Positions 45,660-61,393 of a stretch of DNA of 64,000 nt are shown here, piece after piece (within the stretch, counting starts at the first letter, position 1; each line of letters starts with the position of its first letter). Source of the DNA: Escherichia phage radambza; sequence record MN850639.1. One strand, 5' to 3'. A model generated the notes under the pieces. That model searched no databases, was not told where the DNA came from, and saw nothing but the letters and a program-made list of their open reading frames with translations. The position numbers and the translations under genes are program-made.

Positions 45660-45675
45660 AATCTTCTCCAGAAAT

Positions 45676-45698
45676 TAAAAAGGCTCCCGTAGGAGCCT
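45676..45698 (-). terminator. rho-independent terminator after Nampt-like gene (minus strand)
   Basis: Plus AAAA then AGGCTCC-cgta-GGAGCCT; hairpin then U-run on minus strand. Confidence 0.55.
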
Positions 45699-45712
45699 CT
45701 TATCATATACTT

Positions 45713-47509
45713 TTAAAGCTGCTTGTCAATATTATTTCGAATATCACCAAGAGTTGTGTAACCGAACTGCTCAGAGTCGCTAAAGACTAGACGCAAAGCA
45801 CAAGCTGGGTGTTCAAGTGCATCTGCAAAGCTCTGGAACCCATAGCCATCTACAGCTTTCAGATTTTCACCATCCCACATAGGTGCTACACCACCAAAGG
45901 CAGATTTCTTAACACCACTATCTGTTTTAGGGTCTTTTGCAAGCATAATCTCTTTACCACCAATGCTTGCAAGAGTTGCTTTGACAGCAAATGCAAAGGT
46001 GTCACGAGTCATGTACTGGTAAGTGTAAGAGCCTACACCAAACACTACGTTAGAGCTTGCAAAACCCATTTCATACAGACGCTTCAGGATTTCGTTTGCA
46101 CGTTCCAGCGTGATAGAGTCACCATAGATAAGGCCGATGTGCTCATCCAGTACCTTAAACCCTTTAGAGTTAATAGTCCCTCCGAAGATGTTGTACAGGG
46201 TCTTAATAGCCCCATCAATCTCAGCTACAGGACGTGTTACAACGTTTGCAGAACCAACCATATAAGCATTCTTCAACATCACCGTATCAGCAACTTCAAA
46301 GTCTTCTCTGTCAACAACCATTTCGTAGCCTTCTGACAGTAGCCATCCAGCAATACCATAGTTGATGTTTTCAAGCTTCATGTTCAGAACAGCATTCAAC
46401 ATTGTGTCACTAGCTTCCAGCTTGCTTAGGTGCTCATAATAAGCCTTCTTAGCACACTCTAAGTGGATTGCTTTATAGCCTGTGACAATATGTACAGGGT
46501 CTCCAGAGTCAGGGCGAATTACCAGCTTACCATCACGTTCCATAATTTCTTTACGAAGTGCTGGTAAGATTTCTGACACAGTTCTCCAGAAGTTATAAGT
46601 ATCTGAAACAATACTTGCAATACCAGTTGGGTAAGTTTCTGTTAAGAAACGACGGAAGGTTTGCAACTCACCTTTAAAGCGTCTTTCCTCTTCAATCAAT
46701 TCATTACCACCTTCCCAAGCAATGTTTGCACACATTACAGAGTGTTCAGTGGCTGGTACAGAACTACCAATATCAGAAATTGGGTAAGACTGTCCATAGA
46801 TGCGTTTAGCCGTGTATACAGCAGGGAAGCTATCAGTTCCTTTAAAGCTGGTTAAGTGACCTACAGCATTAAATGCGTCATCGGTAAAGCCGGACATACC
46901 ACGCATAGCAAAGTCATGGCACTGATAAGGTAAATGTAAGTCATTGTCGCAAGTAAGGTCAGTCCACTTCTTACAGATACGTTTGTAGTGCAATGCAATA
47001 GTTGCAATGGTGCAAGCCTTCCAAATCTCAGCAGAGAAAGCATCTTCCAGATAACCTGCTACCCAATGGAAACCTGAAACAGTGTTCTGGAAGACAATCA
47101 TTGGAACACGCATAGGAACAACTGTACCTTCTTCTACAGCGTATACTTCAACTGGTAGATAGCCTAAATCGTGAAGTGCTTCCCAATGCTCTCGACCTAT
47201 AGCATCTTTACCCAGAACACCATTCATGACTTCTAAGATTTCGTCAATTGCTTCTTTTTTATCACGTTCAAAGAAAGTGGCATTCCAGTGGTCTATCAAG
47301 TAATCTTTAACAAAACGTTGAATACCAAAAGCTACTACACCGTCAATTGCTAAGGGGCTGTTAAACCAGAGGCTGTTAAACCATTTGTCACTACGTGGTG
47401 TCAGGTTCAACATAAGATATTGCGTAGCATCTGGATACTGATATATATGTGATGCCTTGTAAGCATCTGCATTAAGACCTGCTGGTACTGCGTAAAGTGA
47501 CTTACTCAT
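45713..47509 (-). CDS. nicotinamide phosphoribosyltransferase family protein (Nampt/NadV-like; possibly a Namat-type NAD+ reconstitution enzyme)
   Basis: 598 aa; VIRPDSGDP and GLIYGDSIT motifs typical of the Nampt family. Confidence 0.85.
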   Translation of the reverse strand: MSKSLYAVPAGLNADAYKASHIYQYPDATQYLMLNLTPRSDKWFNSLWFNSPLAIDGVVAFGIQRFVKDYLIDHWNATFFERDKKEAIDEILEVMNGVLGKDAIGREHWEALHDLGYLPVEVYAVEEGTVVPMRVPMIVFQNTVSGFHWVAGYLEDAFSAEIWKACTIATIALHYKRICKKWTDLTCDNDLHLPYQCHDFAMRGMSGFTDDAFNAVGHLTSFKGTDSFPAVYTAKRIYGQSYPISDIGSSVPATEHSVMCANIAWEGGNELIEEERRFKGELQTFRRFLTETYPTGIASIVSDTYNFWRTVSEILPALRKEIMERDGKLVIRPDSGDPVHIVTGYKAIHLECAKKAYYEHLSKLEASDTMLNAVLNMKLENINYGIAGWLLSEGYEMVVDREDFEVADTVMLKNAYMVGSANVVTRPVAEIDGAIKTLYNIFGGTINSKGFKVLDEHIGLIYGDSITLERANEILKRLYEMGFASSNVVFGVGSYTYQYMTRDTFAFAVKATLASIGGKEIMLAKDPKTDSGVKKSAFGGVAPMWDGENLKAVDGYGFQSFADALEHPACALRLVFSDSEQFGYTTLGDIRNNIDKQL

Positions 47510-47531
47510 ATTTTATCTCTCTCTCTCTATC

Positions 47532-48023
47532 TTAGTTATGTCTTGCAAACTCACCATGAAGTTCTATTCGCTTTTTAATTACAGCTTCTTTTGCTTCTTC
47601 TACCGTTTTAAATCTTCCACAAAAGTATTCTTTATGGTAAAGCATGACTCTTGCTTTGTAAAGACCTGTTTGTTTACAAAAACTTACACCCTTCACACCA
47701 GTTTTATTATTCTTGTATATACCCCTATTCCTCTGATTTTGTGACTTTGTGCTAAGTCTTAAATTCTCCAACTTATTATTAGATTTATCAAGGTCTATGT
47801 GGTCTATCTCATATCCACTTGGCATCTCACCTCCAGACATAATCCATGCAATATTATGTGCATAGTACCTCTTCTTATTTATCTGGACTTGGATATAACC
47901 CTTCTTAGACCTTGTGCCAGCAACATTACCAGCAATAGCGGTATTGCAAAGGGTTACTTTCCAAATTAGTAAACCTGTCTCCGGTTCGTATATTAGGTAT
48001 TTTTCGAAGTAACCCTTATCCAT
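47532..48023 (-). CDS. HNH homing endonuclease with AP2-type DNA-binding domain
   Basis: 163 aa; YEPETGLLIWK N-terminus, IDHIDLDKSNNKLENLRL HNH motif, GVKGVSF...YKARV AP2-like domain; sits between the Nampt-like and Prs-like genes. Confidence 0.8.
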   Translation of the reverse strand: MDKGYFEKYLIYEPETGLLIWKVTLCNTAIAGNVAGTRSKKGYIQVQINKKRYYAHNIAWIMSGGEMPSGYEIDHIDLDKSNNKLENLRLSTKSQNQRNRGIYKNNKTGVKGVSFCKQTGLYKARVMLYHKEYFCGRFKTVEEAKEAVIKKRIELHGEFARHN

Positions 48024-48031
48024 TTTAATAC

Positions 48032-48913
48032 CTAATCCAAATTTGCTACAGTAACTTGACTGTAATGTGTTAAGCCACGTTCTTTAGCTTCGCCTAAAGA
48101 GTTTGTAGTGTAAATATGGTCGATACCATTGTCAAGAAGGTTTTCAACATCTTTAGAGAAGATACCATGTGTTACATAAAGCTCTACACGTTTTGCACCT
48201 GCTTCACGTAGGTGTTTAGCTGCCTCTACGAAGGTTCGACCACCATCACAGATATCATCAAGAATCATGACGGTTTTATCGGTCAAATCAACATCGTCAA
48301 GGATTTGCATACCAGTGATTTCTCCAGTCTTAAGATTTCGCACCTTAGACATTGTGATATATGGTTTATCAACCTCTTTAGCAGTCTCTGCAATCTTCTT
48401 AGAAGCACCTGCATCTGGGGCTACTAAGTAATCAATCAGAGGGTCATTTGCGTAATGGACTGCAATCTCCTTTTGAGGAATACTCTGGAAGCAATTGAAA
48501 AGGTTATCTGGAACGTAACTATGAGGGTCAACTGCACAGACTGCATCAAAACCCATTGCATTAACCTGTTGTGCAAACACTTTCAAAGCTGCTGCATCAC
48601 CTTTAAACATGTGACGGTCGTAACGTGCATTTGGCAAATAGTAAAAGATAGCAGTCTTCATAGCAAACTTATGAGGTACTAAATCATCAATTGCTTCTTT
48701 AGCCAGTGCCACAGCAAACAGTGTGTCTTTGTCATAACCCTTTACAATCATAACCACATTGTTAATAGATGATGCTGCATAAGCAGTAAAATCAACAAGC
48801 TCTTGTGAAAAGTGGCCACCAATCTCACCAGAAGGGAATTGGATGATGTTAAACTCTTCTTCATGAGTTCCTTTAGTCGGTGAATGAATTGTGACACGGA
48901 TAGATGTTTTCAT
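48032..48913 (-). CDS. ribose-phosphate pyrophosphokinase family protein (Prs-like; possibly an ADP-ribose pyrophosphokinase)
   Basis: VDPHS and ILDDICDGGRT PRPP-synthetase motifs; ORF-track TTG start trimmed to ATG at 48911-48913. Confidence 0.85.
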   Translation of the reverse strand: MKTSIRVTIHSPTKGTHEEEFNIIQFPSGEIGGHFSQELVDFTAYAASSINNVVMIVKGYDKDTLFAVALAKEAIDDLVPHKFAMKTAIFYYLPNARYDRHMFKGDAAALKVFAQQVNAMGFDAVCAVDPHSYVPDNLFNCFQSIPQKEIAVHYANDPLIDYLVAPDAGASKKIAETAKEVDKPYITMSKVRNLKTGEITGMQILDDVDLTDKTVMILDDICDGGRTFVEAAKHLREAGAKRVELYVTHGIFSKDVENLLDNGIDHIYTTNSLGEAKERGLTHYSQVTVANLD

Positions 48914-48924
48914 AGTTTTCTCTC

Positions 48925-49203
48925 TCAATCAAAAGTTACGTTTGTTACTGCCATTGCAGATTTGCATTTTACAGGGTCTACAACGTGGTAAAGTACACTA
49001 CAGTTACCTGTGCTGTCTGGTACAGGTTTTACCCATTGATGCTTTATAGTTGGCTCTCCTAAGTCTTTGTAAGAACCATCTGTAAAGTTGTTTACCATCT
49101 CAAGTGCAATTGGTTCTGGAACATGACCACGTATCATGTACATTTCACAACCATTACCACCTTCACTGACTAATGGTAAAATTTCCCACTTCTCTTTAGC
49201 CAT
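48925..49203 (-). CDS. hypothetical protein
   Basis: 92-aa ORF. Confidence 0.4.
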   Translation of the reverse strand: MAKEKWEILPLVSEGGNGCEMYMIRGHVPEPIALEMVNNFTDGSYKDLGEPTIKHQWVKPVPDSTGNCSVLYHVVDPVKCKSAMAVTNVTFD

Positions 49204-49711
49204 TGTAAGTTGCCCTATAAACTGTCTCGAACTTCAACAGGAGATATATTGCCAAATCTGTATAGTTGTTGTCAAGCACATCTGGCATATTATTTTTGAT
49301 ATATTTCTCTTGCTCTTCATAGGTCATCTTAGGTGTGCTTAGAAGGTTATCTCCCTGCTTCTGGTTATCAAGTTTAGTCTGGATAAACCAGTTTGCACAG
49401 TGATGCTCACCACCCTTTGTAACAGGTTTGTGGTGGCCTAATGTGAAGGATTGACTACCTGTGTATCTACAAAGCTTATTGAGCACTGCAATGGTGTTCT
49501 TCACAACAAAACATTCATACAGGTTATCTATAGTGTAGTGTGGGTAATAACGGAATAGTACTCTTTCACGAGTACTTTCACGATTCCAGAGAATCATGTG
49601 ATTGGAGTTTGAGGGGTCGTATTGGTGGGAGTCAATGAACTCTTGACGTTCCTCAAAGCTAAGTCTTAACACTGACATTGCAGCAGAACGTTTTAGGTTT
49701 GACAGATACAT
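49196..49711 (-). CDS. HNH-motif nuclease-like protein
   Basis: 171 aa; GHHKPVTKGGEHHCANW...N resembles an HNH core. Confidence 0.45.
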   Translation of the reverse strand: MYLSNLKRSAAMSVLRLSFEERQEFIDSHQYDPSNSNHMILWNRESTRERVLFRYYPHYTIDNLYECFVVKNTIAVLNKLCRYTGSQSFTLGHHKPVTKGGEHHCANWFIQTKLDNQKQGDNLLSTPKMTYEEQEKYIKNNMPDVLDNNYTDLAIYLLLKFETVYRATYNG

Positions 49712-49762
49712 ATCATCTCCAAAATAAAAAGGGAACTGTAAAGGTTCCCTTATAGTATCTGT

Positions 49763-51899: not shown

Positions 51900-52457
51900 T
51901 TATTTTTTCTTACAATTGTCAAAATGATATCGAGTCATGTTACCAGCACCACCAGTCATGCCACAATGAGGACAGGTTTTCTTTTCCTTTGGCTTTTTTC
52001 CGGCTTCTGACATCTTCTTCCTTGTTTCTATAGACCTTTTACAACCTTTTGATTTTGTATTTCCTATTTGGGATTCCCCTAGTCGTCTTCGATGTTCTTC
52101 AGTGAAAACCCTGCCTTTATTCACAATGGATAAAGCTTTCGCGTTCAAAGCCCTTACCTTTTCATAGTCTCTGGATGATATTTTCCTATCTAGGCCATCA
52201 TGAGCTAACCTGTGCCATGCGAACCATAACTTATGATTGTTTGGATACATCTTAACCAGTAATTTATGAGCTATATAATGCTCTCTAGGTGTAAGTAAAG
52301 CAATATTATCTCCACTAATTTTATCGCCACCTAGACATACTGGTATGATATGGTGTCTTTCATAACCCTTACCTTGACATTTGTAGTATGTCAGAGGCAC
52401 ACCCCTTTCAGAATGTGCCTTCTTAATAATTGCATTATATATTAGTTCGTAATTCAT
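51900..52457 (-). CDS. HNH homing endonuclease
   Basis: 185 aa; ERHHIIPVCLGGDKISGDNIALLTPREHYIAH HNH motif; basic C-terminal tail with Cys/His cluster. Confidence 0.75.
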   Translation of the reverse strand: MNYELIYNAIIKKAHSERGVPLTYYKCQGKGYERHHIIPVCLGGDKISGDNIALLTPREHYIAHKLLVKMYPNNHKLWFAWHRLAHDGLDRKISSRDYEKVRALNAKALSIVNKGRVFTEEHRRRLGESQIGNTKSKGCKRSIETRKKMSEAGKKPKEKKTCPHCGMTGGAGNMTRYHFDNCKKK

Positions 52458-60896: not shown

Positions 60897-61393
60897 TCAT
60901 AAGCTTCTCCGTGATTTGTAAACTCTCTATGGAGTTCTTCTCTTTTCTTTTTGACAACTGCTTCAGCCTCAGCAACAGAGTCAAATAGACCTAGATGGTA
61001 GCAAACTTTATTATGCTTAACTTGTGCAGCCCATCTACCTCTTTGCTTGTGGTAATATACACCCTTCACGCCAGACTTATTATCTCTTCTTTTGACTGCA
61101 TTACAGTTGTTGTCTGACCTACTACACTCTCTCAAATTGTCGAACCAGTTGTCGCATCTGATACAATTCTTATGGTCAACAAATTTTGGGAGGTATCCTT
61201 TCATATACAAGAATGCCAGCCTGTGTGCTGCATATCTTTTTCCGAAGAGTTTTATATAGATATAGCCGCTATGGTGTTTCAAACCTGCTACTGAGCCAGC
61301 TTTGGCCTTACCTTTTCTATCAACTAACCAAGTAAAGACCCCTGTTTCGGGGTCATAGTGCAGGTACTCTTTAAGAGTTTGTTGAGTTAACAT
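60893..61393 (-). CDS. HNH homing endonuclease with AP2-type domain
   Basis: YDPETGVFTW, VDHKN...N HNH motif, SGVKGVYYHKQRGRWAAQV AP2-like; ORF-track TTG start trimmed to ATG at 61391-61393 with GGTGGA SD. Confidence 0.75.
   Translation of the reverse strand: MLTQQTLKEYLHYDPETGVFTWLVDRKGKAKAGSVAGLKHHSGYIYIKLFGKRYAAHRLAFLYMKGYLPKFVDHKNCIRCDNWFDNLRECSRSDNNCNAVKRRDNKSGVKGVYYHKQRGRWAAQVKHNKVCYHLGLFDSVAEAEAVVKKKREELHREFTNHGEAYE

Follow-up and report, generated by a model that had tools for sequence, protein, structure and literature searches.

The stretch analysed here (the window) comprises 64,000 nucleotides (nt) of Escherichia phage radambza (sequence record MN850639.1), and this work concerns three adjacent open reading frames (ORFs) on its minus strand at positions 45713-48913, which very probably form a NAD+ reconstitution pathway 1 (NARP1) operon of a Felix O1-like phage, interrupted by a homing-endonuclease gene. 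The original prediction had described at these positions a Nampt-like and a Prs-like gene separated by an HNH-AP2 endonuclease gene; the ORF listing contained all three, in the order adps, HNH gene and namat, and the profile searches agreed with the description.

48032..48913, minus strand: adps, ADP-ribose pyrophosphokinase gene, Prs-like (293 amino acids (aa) from the ATG)
47532..48023, minus strand: gene of a free-standing homing endonuclease, HNH_3 (+ AP2-like), between adps and namat (163 aa)
45713..47509, minus strand: namat, nicotinamide ADP-ribose transferase gene, Nampt-like (598 aa)

The adps and namat genes are 522 nt apart and the HNH gene is the only one between them. The ATG at 48913, with which the predicted interval ended, is the start used by Bas63 and most relatives, and an alternative TTG at 48928 would add 5 aa. 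The Nampt-like ORF matched PF04095 (NAPRTase, E=7e-35), NF006629 (468 bits) and phrog_448 (E=4e-201), and the Prs-like ORF matched TIGR01251 (ribP_PPkin, 126.6 bits) and phrog_619 (E=5e-98). The HNH ORF matched PF13392 (HNH_3, E=1e-18, 67.2 bits with a cut-off of 24.8) and phrog_99 (E=5e-69); these family assignments are far above chance. The AP2 match in the same ORF reached 20.8 bits, under the Pfam cut-off of 33.3 bits, and for this reason the DNA-binding module of the HNH protein is only probable.

A megablast search with the region retrieved 259 phage records, nearly all of them Escherichia and Salmonella phages of the Felix O1-like genus Felixounavirus, with phage dune as the best match (96.1% DNA identity over 4.8 kb), and the window can be assigned by its sequence to Felixounavirus. 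NARP1 was discovered through the deletion of genes 79-80 in the Felixounavirus Bas63 (JohannRWettstein), a BASEL phage (Osterman et al. 2024, bioRxiv 10.1101/2024.02.11.579819). According to the same work, the deletion mutant plated ~20-fold more poorly on SIR2-HerA cells, with NAD+ collapse, the rescue by wild-type Bas63 was independent of the host pncC and nadR genes, and ADP-ribose-pyrophosphate (ADPR-PP) was detected only when both Bas63 genes and the defence system were present. In the direct comparison with the Bas63 record (MZ501086, Ounavirinae; Felixounavirus), the window Namat was 96% identical to Bas63_0080 (577/598) and the window Adps 78% identical to Bas63_0079. The Namat proteins of phages dune and Felix O1 are tabulated as 'Adps-associated', and their Prs-like proteins stand in the Adps table (supplement, bioRxiv 10.1101/2024.02.11.579819); both phages carry the HNH insert.

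Approximately 95% identical Felixounavirus NARP1 sequence was also held by GU169904 (Staphylococcus phage SA1) and by two 'Campylobacter' records, three records that probably carry a wrong label or are contaminated.

Orthology, signatures, gene order and population pattern were obtained in this analysis, and the chemistry and the anti-defence phenotype are taken from the work of others on congeners and homologues; we infer that this combination of alleles is fully active. According to the proposed mechanism, a NAD+-depleting defence (e.g. SIR2-HerA, Thoeris, DSR1/2 or SEFIR) would split NAD+ into ADP-ribose and nicotinamide, Adps would take the beta-gamma pyrophosphate from ATP and attach it to ADP-ribose, at the 1'' hydroxyl of its terminal ribose, to give ADPR-PP, and Namat would join nicotinamide to ADPR-PP by Nampt-type chemistry, giving NAD+ directly. 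Such a route would need neither a nicotinamide mononucleotide (NMN) intermediate nor a NMN adenylyltransferase (NMNAT). The preference for ADPR-PP over phosphoribosyl pyrophosphate (PRPP) would be provided by an adenine-binding clamp formed by the GSYTYQYMTRD helix together with the beta1-beta2 loop (K42-W43 in the window).

This 'selectivity clamp' of Namat enzymes consists of a helix with the motif GS-X-phi-X-phi-X-phi-TRD, in which positions 3 and 7 are aromatic and stack on the adenine moiety of ADPR-PP (NAR 2026, PMC12774641), and of a variable beta1-beta2 loop, the selectivity-clamp loop (SCL), which gives one more stacking residue (PMC12774641). The third residue of the SCL is Arg, Lys or Tyr, and when it is Lys or Tyr the fourth residue is the one that stacks (PMC12774641).

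46001..46033, minus strand: Namat selectivity-clamp helix (SCH) signature GSYTYQYMTRD (residues 493-503)

Canonical Nampt and NadV proteins have an SCH without the adenine-stacking aromatic residues, as seen in the equivalent segments of H. ducreyi NadV (HdNadV, GAQTYQRNTRD), the Xcc (Xanthomonas) enzyme (GGALLQKVDRD) and the KVP40-type phage enzyme (GGGLLQQSDRD), whereas the window protein has Tyr at both positions. Its SCL reads S40-D41-K42-W43, the same as in Bas63. All the catalytic residues were conserved (D15, Y17, F200, R203, D226, H256, R332 and D334, corresponding to D13, Y15, F189, R192, D215, H245, R306 and D308 of SPbetaL1 Namat), covering the nicotinamide, ribose and phosphate contacts as well as the catalytic His. 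The protein scored 425 bits against SPbetaL1 Namat (9w5w/9w5x), 348 against H. ducreyi NadV and 140-175 against other Nampts; as proof of Namat identity on its own, this gap was weakened by the 348 bits of H. ducreyi NadV, and since such a true Nampt scores high, the clamp motif was taken as the discriminator. The AlphaFold2 (AF2) model of Namat had a predicted local distance difference test (pLDDT) value of 91.2 and a predicted template-modelling (pTM) score of 0.90, and its top Foldseek matches were Namat crystal structures, with a template-modelling (TM) score of 0.95 normalised to the target. The window Namat was 45% identical to the FADO and ICP1 Namats vs ~27-33% to the KVP40-type Nampt, and an Adps gene within 10 genes, another mark of Namat, was found 522 nt upstream. 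By analogy with SPbetaL1 Namat, and with Bas63 in vivo, for both of which it has been shown, the window enzyme would prefer ADPR-PP over PRPP, yielding NAD+ directly.

Two side observations concern other members of this family. Enterobacterial chromosomes (Klebsiella, Cronobacter, Kosakonia, Phytobacter and others) contained 496-aa homologues with the Namat-type motif GSYTYQYNTRD, whose sequences are consistent with the reported bacterial NARP1 homologues. In Vibrio phage ICP1_2017_F_Mathbaria, the annotated namat coding sequence begins ~46 codons downstream of the start of tblastn similarity and its in-frame upstream extension has a stop codon (2459-2638 of the retrieved stretch), for which a wrongly annotated start, a frameshift or an error of sequencing could be the reason.

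The Adps proteins of the window, ICP1, FADO and Bas63 were aligned together with E. coli Prs. In ICP1 Adps, a remodelled PP loop (C215-S220, in the context DDICDG) binds the pyrophosphate of ATP and Lys185 is the catalytic residue of a beta-hairpin (NAR, September 2026, PMC13586617); the acceptor residues are R87, H121, D161, D212 and D213, and the alpha11-alpha12 C-terminal module of Prs has been lost (PMC13586617).

48230..48259, minus strand: Adps PP loop DDICDGGRTF, the ATP beta-gamma pyrophosphate donor site (role from PMC13586617)

The first six residues of the window PP loop were identical to those of ICP1 (DDICDGAASF), the corresponding sequence of E. coli Prs being DDMIDTGGTL, and the catalytic Lys is K190, within MSKVRNLKTGE (K185 in ICP1). 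The window protein has 293 aa and E. coli Prs 315 aa; the missing 22 aa are C-terminal, and the alignment of the two stops ~20 residues before the end of Prs. The ICP1 acceptor residues correspond to R97, H131, D167, D219 and D220; judging from the alignment, the residues of the acceptor groove appear to be necessary but do not discriminate Adps from Prs, because Prs shares them. ADP-ribose, and not ribose-5-phosphate, has been shown to be the acceptor for the ICP1 Adps (PMC13586617) and for that of SPbetaL1, and ADPR-PP was seen in Bas63 infections (bioRxiv 10.1101/2024.02.11.579819). The comparison of canonical Nampt/Prs with the phage Namat/Adps enzymes, which the original prediction had proposed as a check, gave the Namat/Adps versions of both the clamp motif and the PP loop, with a Namat as the best structural match. 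It had also noticed that no NMNAT was visible, and in agreement with this a scan of the six frames of the 64-kb window revealed neither an (H/T)xGH motif in a plausible context nor a Nudix box. The presence of the clamp motif in Namat and of the PP loop in Adps, together with the lack of a NMNAT motif in the window, indicated NARP1 rather than classical salvage or the NARP2 type of pathway.

The Nampt-like protein had been noted as about 100 aa longer than typical, and this excess over the 491-aa SPbetaL1 Namat was found to consist of three insertions: one of 9 aa in the SCL (where Bas63 has 4 aa), a second of 15 aa (residues ~264-278) and a third of ~85 aa (residues 345-432).

46214..46477, minus strand: ~88-aa alpha/beta insertion domain, Namat residues 345-432, after the RPDSGDP strand
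47354..47383, minus strand: 15-nt in-frame tandem duplication, TGGTTTAACAGCC[T/C]C x2, encoding WFNSL-WFNSP in the SCL
47510..47531, minus strand: spacer between the HNH gene and namat with a (GA)n ribosome-binding region, 8 nt longer than in most of the HNH-plus relatives listed

The ~88-aa domain is autonomous and was confidently folded in the model; it directly follows the strand with the ribose-binding residues R332 and D334, a position that is a hotspot for insertions in the different Namat lineages. Neither a fold nor a sequence relative of this domain was found in PDB, BFVD or Pfam, and it is not discussed in the Namat structure paper (PMC12774641). The tandem duplication converts SDKWFNSPL to SDKWFNSLWFNSPL and gives a second copy of the Trp which, in the Bas63 model, stacks on adenine. 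It was absent from all 117 phage records matching the stretch, from IMG/VR and from the close homologues listed in a search of 5.8 billion proteins (24 with >=87% identity and full coverage), all of which had 593 aa. The pLDDT fell below 50 at residues 44-47, in the duplicated loop. Because the two copies differ by one base, the duplication is probably not an assembly artefact, and it is expected, as a prediction only, to be tolerated, because the SCL is naturally variable. The 8-nt expansion of the spacer and the duplication in the SCL suggest slippage-type events in this genome.

The adps-namat spacer of Bas63 has 45 nt, with a GC hairpin and a run of Ts after it (GGGGCTTGAAAGCCCC-ATTTT); in place of this type of spacer the window has the 492-nt HNH gene with short flanks. 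Copies of the HNH gene with 90-99.8% identity were found in 60 phage records, that of Felix O1 among them, and Bas63 had none; as ~216 records contained the junction, the presence/absence polymorphism of the gene stands at about 28%. The ORF was intact in 7/7 copies examined, with a ratio of non-synonymous to synonymous polymorphism (pN/pS) of 0.17, as under purifying selection, and a PDB sequence search with the HNH protein gave no match. The middle gene was considered as a metabolic accessory (Adpp or RyDEP), which the Pfam scan ruled out. We predict from its sequence that the HNH gene is a selfish element outside the NAD+ pathway, and no widened substrate range is expected because this third gene has no Macro or RyR domain.

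47405..47477, minus strand: dimorphic ~70-nt patch near the 5' end of namat (nt ~33-105), haplotype X in the window

At this patch, haplotypes X (the window type) and Y (the Bas63 type) differ at ~20 positions. When 14 genomes were compared, 7/7 HNH-plus genomes had X, and Y was found only in HNH-minus genomes (4/7), an association that was not significant (Fisher p=0.07). The database-wide picture was clearer: in a comparison of 61 HNH-plus records, all the ~55-60 from Felixounavirus matched the window across the HNH-namat junction, mostly differing by one 8-nt indel, and haplotype Y occurred in ~80 HNH-minus records; the records behind these counts are not phylogenetically independent. The association was one-sided, since Y was never found with the HNH gene and X was found both with and without it, and the coding flanks showed no fixed differences between the HNH-plus and HNH-minus members of the 14 genomes. 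The sequence pattern is consistent with co-conversion or hitch-hiking beside a homing endonuclease, and the ~70-nt patch is a candidate homing target or co-conversion tract. The HNH endonuclease would have replaced the 45-nt hairpin spacer and would spread through the genus together with the neighbouring ~100 nt of namat.

Other genes of this kind were seen elsewhere in the window. A second HNH_3+AP2 gene at 60911-61375 (minus strand) encodes a 40% identical paralogue with an AP2 score of 30.3 bits, and an ORF at 51900-52457 was HNH-like by eye; by sequence, the genome appears to carry several homing-endonuclease genes.

The other polymorphism of the locus was found in adps, where the genus has two deeply diverged allele classes.

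48404..48913, minus strand: Adps N-terminal domain segment (codons 1-170) with two deeply diverged allele classes in the genus, class A in the window

Class A comprised the window, dune, Mushroom, VpaE1, wV8, BPS17L1 and EC106, and class B comprised Bas63, Andreotti, tootiki, LinBro, Felix O1 and BPS15Q2. The two classes shared ~68% protein identity, with a mean pairwise synonymous divergence (dS) of 1.09 and a non-synonymous to synonymous ratio (dN/dS) of 0.12; the dS values for comparison were ~0.28 in the C-terminal part of adps and 0.23 in namat. Both classes were found with and without the HNH gene, and they were independent of it. Diversifying selection on the N-domain was rejected, as a dN/dS of 0.12 with saturated dS points to old alleles under purifying selection. 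Because the high diversity continues upstream into the two ORFs before adps (to ~49700), the dimorphism appears, from the sequences compared, to be a regional mosaicism of old alleles and not an Adps-specific signal.

A related observation was made in LR699048 (VpaE1_ev035), which we take, from its name alone, to be a derivative of VpaE1 (NC_027337). The segment differed throughout between the two records: ev035 lacked the HNH gene, its Adps belonged to class B (class A in VpaE1) and its namat carried haplotype Y (X in VpaE1), which suggests a block exchanged by recombination between co-cultured felixounaviruses.

Several points weigh against the NARP1 interpretation. The ICP1 residues F18, F92 and F223, which make the adenine contact or the ATP cap, align with H17, M102 and E230 in the window Adps, and among the ICP1 aromatics F18', F92, F221 and F223 only F221 is kept (F228); the N-terminal alignment, at 32% identity, is uncertain, and the functional Bas63 Adps has the same substitutions at the positions of F18, F92 and F223. 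The window carries Adps class A and the class tested in Bas63 is B (~68% identity over the N-terminal 170 aa); class A is also the class of phage dune, which is in the published NARP1 catalogue. To these points are added the genome-private duplication of 5 aa in the clamp loop of Namat, modelled with low confidence, the loss of the Bas63-type inter-genic hairpin through the HNH insertion, by which relative expression may differ, and the in vitro synthesis of NMN from PRPP by Namat enzymes, described below. The support for this genome consists of sequence and model comparison.

We also considered that the Felix O1-type Namat could be more than a plain Namat, the ~88-aa domain and the duplicated Trp conferring an extra property and the N-terminal classes of Adps being under balancing selection, an idea that we regard as doubtful. 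If it were true, the extra property could be e.g. docking to the Adps hexamer, by which the labile ADPR-PP would be channelled, a regulatory function or a change in donor range, and the two ancient allele classes of Adps could reflect balancing selection by host factors targeting NARP1.

The alternative that survived best was that the locus is NARP1 by descent with a functionally altered copy, in which the duplication weakens or shifts the donor selectivity or the HNH insertion uncouples expression. The duplication lies exactly at the adenine-stacking residue, it was unique among the 117 matching phage records and the close homologues listed, which may point to a recent origin or a mildly deleterious effect, clamp double mutants lose activity with ADPR-PP and keep that with PRPP (PMC12774641), and the HNH insert replaces the inter-genic hairpin. 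However, the SCL is naturally variable in both length and sequence, the stacking Trp is still available because both registers keep the K/S-W-F-N-S context, the duplication is in frame and has acquired a point change since, suggesting that it is tolerated, and the 60 HNH-plus genomes, including Felix O1, keep an intact and highly conserved namat. Taken together, we consider a functionally altered copy to be improbable.

The second of the two readings offered by the original prediction was a conventional salvage pathway, in which the Prs-like protein makes PRPP out of ribose-5-phosphate, the Nampt-like protein makes NMN and the host NadR or PncC/NadD complete NAD+. The Pfam, NCBIfam and PHROG names of the two families do read Prs and Nampt, and in vitro Namat enzymes turn PRPP and nicotinamide into NMN about half as fast as human Nampt does (PMC12774641), so that some classical salvage activity may exist alongside NARP1. 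Nevertheless, Bas63 had no need of pncC or nadR for rescue and ADPR-PP was the intermediate observed, SPbetaL1 Namat, when offered both donors, produced NAD+ and nothing else (bioRxiv 10.1101/2024.02.11.579819), and the window has the clamp motif of Namat and the PP loop of Adps instead of their Nampt and Prs versions, which makes this reading very unlikely. The first reading, a NARP1-type reconstitution, was the one that stood, through the orthology with Bas63, the signatures and the catalogued phage dune.

A NARP2-type pathway (Nampt + Nmnat, the arrangement of Vibrio phage KVP40) whose adenylyltransferase gene would lie elsewhere seems extremely improbable, for although about 24 kb of the ~88-kb genome lie outside the 64-kb window, neither an NMNAT nor a Nudix motif was seen in the window, no product was annotated as an adenylyltransferase in the ~40 kb examined of the Bas63 record, the Nampt-like protein was closer to the FADO and ICP1 Namats than to the KVP40-type Nampt (identities given above), and in the published surveys there was no phage with both NARP1 and NARP2, an Adps neighbour being the mark of NARP1.

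The NARP1 locus lies within a larger group of genes, whose other features were the following.

45678..45701, minus strand: terminator-like hairpin + T-run, likely operon end, 12 nt past the namat stop (consensus scan only)
48925..49711, minus strand: two tightly packed ORFs upstream of adps (171 aa, phrog_3500; 92 aa, phrog_4726)
49729..49751, minus strand: terminator-like hairpin preceding the two upstream ORFs (consensus scan only)

Between the two hairpins (49751-49729 and 45701-45678) lie five closely packed ORFs of the minus strand, which, judging from their spacing, overlaps and arrangement only, are possibly co-transcribed, and rIIA is located directly downstream of the three-gene block. 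The Pfam scan of the five ORFs revealed no Macro or RyR domains, only HNH_3/AP2, NAPRTase, Pribosyltran and a weak DUF7167 match. This last match was in the 171-aa phrog_3500 protein, which also contained the HNH-like motif GHHKP..N..N. In the window, 53 nt (45660-45712) with the terminator-like hairpin and a promoter-like site separate namat from the phrog_4262 gene; between these two genes Bas63 carries an extra 114-aa gene (bas63_0081, phrog_20372, no Pfam match), which the window lacks.

The pathway described here is already known: its chemistry, structures and anti-defence role have been published and it was discovered in this very genus, and since the lineage is the type example of NARP1, the finding is not new and carries little weight as a discovery. 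What is new are small details of variants and populations, namely the private duplication in the clamp loop, the ~88-aa orphan domain and the two N-terminal classes of Adps. The results permit a correction of annotation, because the database records of relatives naming these genes, among those seen, all say Prs and Nampt/NAPRTase, and the locus is a worked example of how the sequence tells a Namat from a Nampt and an Adps from a Prs. It could also guide work on NARP1 evolution, through the homing endonuclease inside an anti-defence operon, the classes of the Adps N-domain and the orphan domain of Namat.

The classical phage salvage system, NARP2 (NadV + NatV of KVP40), and the bacterial NadV (H. 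ducreyi, PDB 9KE8) resemble the window proteins in the Nampt fold and in the chemistry of nicotinamide-ribosyl coupling; in contrast, they use PRPP, need Nmnat and have no Adps partner, and their SCH-equivalents (GGGLLQQSDRD in the KVP40-type enzyme and GAQTYQRNTRD in H. ducreyi) lack the aromatic residues found in the window. Accessory genes are known inside NARP1 operons, with a Macro-domain ADPR-1''-P phosphatase, Adpp, in NARP1-AP (Vibrio phage Gary) and a RyR-domain glycosidase, RyDEP, in phage DyoEdafos. These extended operons have in common with the window a third gene inside the two-gene operon, which in the window encodes, unlike theirs, an HNH_3/AP2-like homing endonuclease.

T4-like and other lytic phages contain free-standing homing endonucleases, e.g. 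the Mob and Seg families and the I-HmuI-type HNH enzymes. The window gene shares with the free-standing phage HNH homing endonucleases the intergenic location of the ORF, its presence or absence among close relatives, the purifying selection and the linkage to one flanking haplotype; it differs from them in that its homing is predicted from the sequence pattern and in that its sequence led to no relative with a solved structure.

The window Adps has the PP loop DDICDG and the catalytic Lys of ICP1 Adps and, like it, no Prs C-terminal module (PMC13586617), being only ~32% identical to it, with the three aromatic residues of the adenine contact and ATP cap not conserved. SPbetaL1 Namat (PDB 9W5W/9W5X) and the window Namat have in common the catalytic residues and the SCH clamp motif; they were 37-38% identical in the Foldseek structural alignment, the window protein has the three insertions (9, 15 and ~85 aa), and the stacking residue of the clamp loop is Trp after Lys in the window and Arg in SPbetaL1 Namat. 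Finally, the window differs from Bas63 NARP1 in the 492-nt HNH gene found where Bas63 has its 45-nt hairpin spacer, in the N-terminal allele class of Adps (~68% identity), in the 5-aa duplication of the Namat clamp loop and in having no bas63_0081 homologue downstream of namat. Both belong to the same genus, have the order adps then namat and lie at the same place in the genome, with rIIA downstream and the small ORFs of the nrdG side upstream, and they share a 96% identical Namat, including the ~88-aa insertion domain, and a ~91% identical C-terminal domain of Adps.

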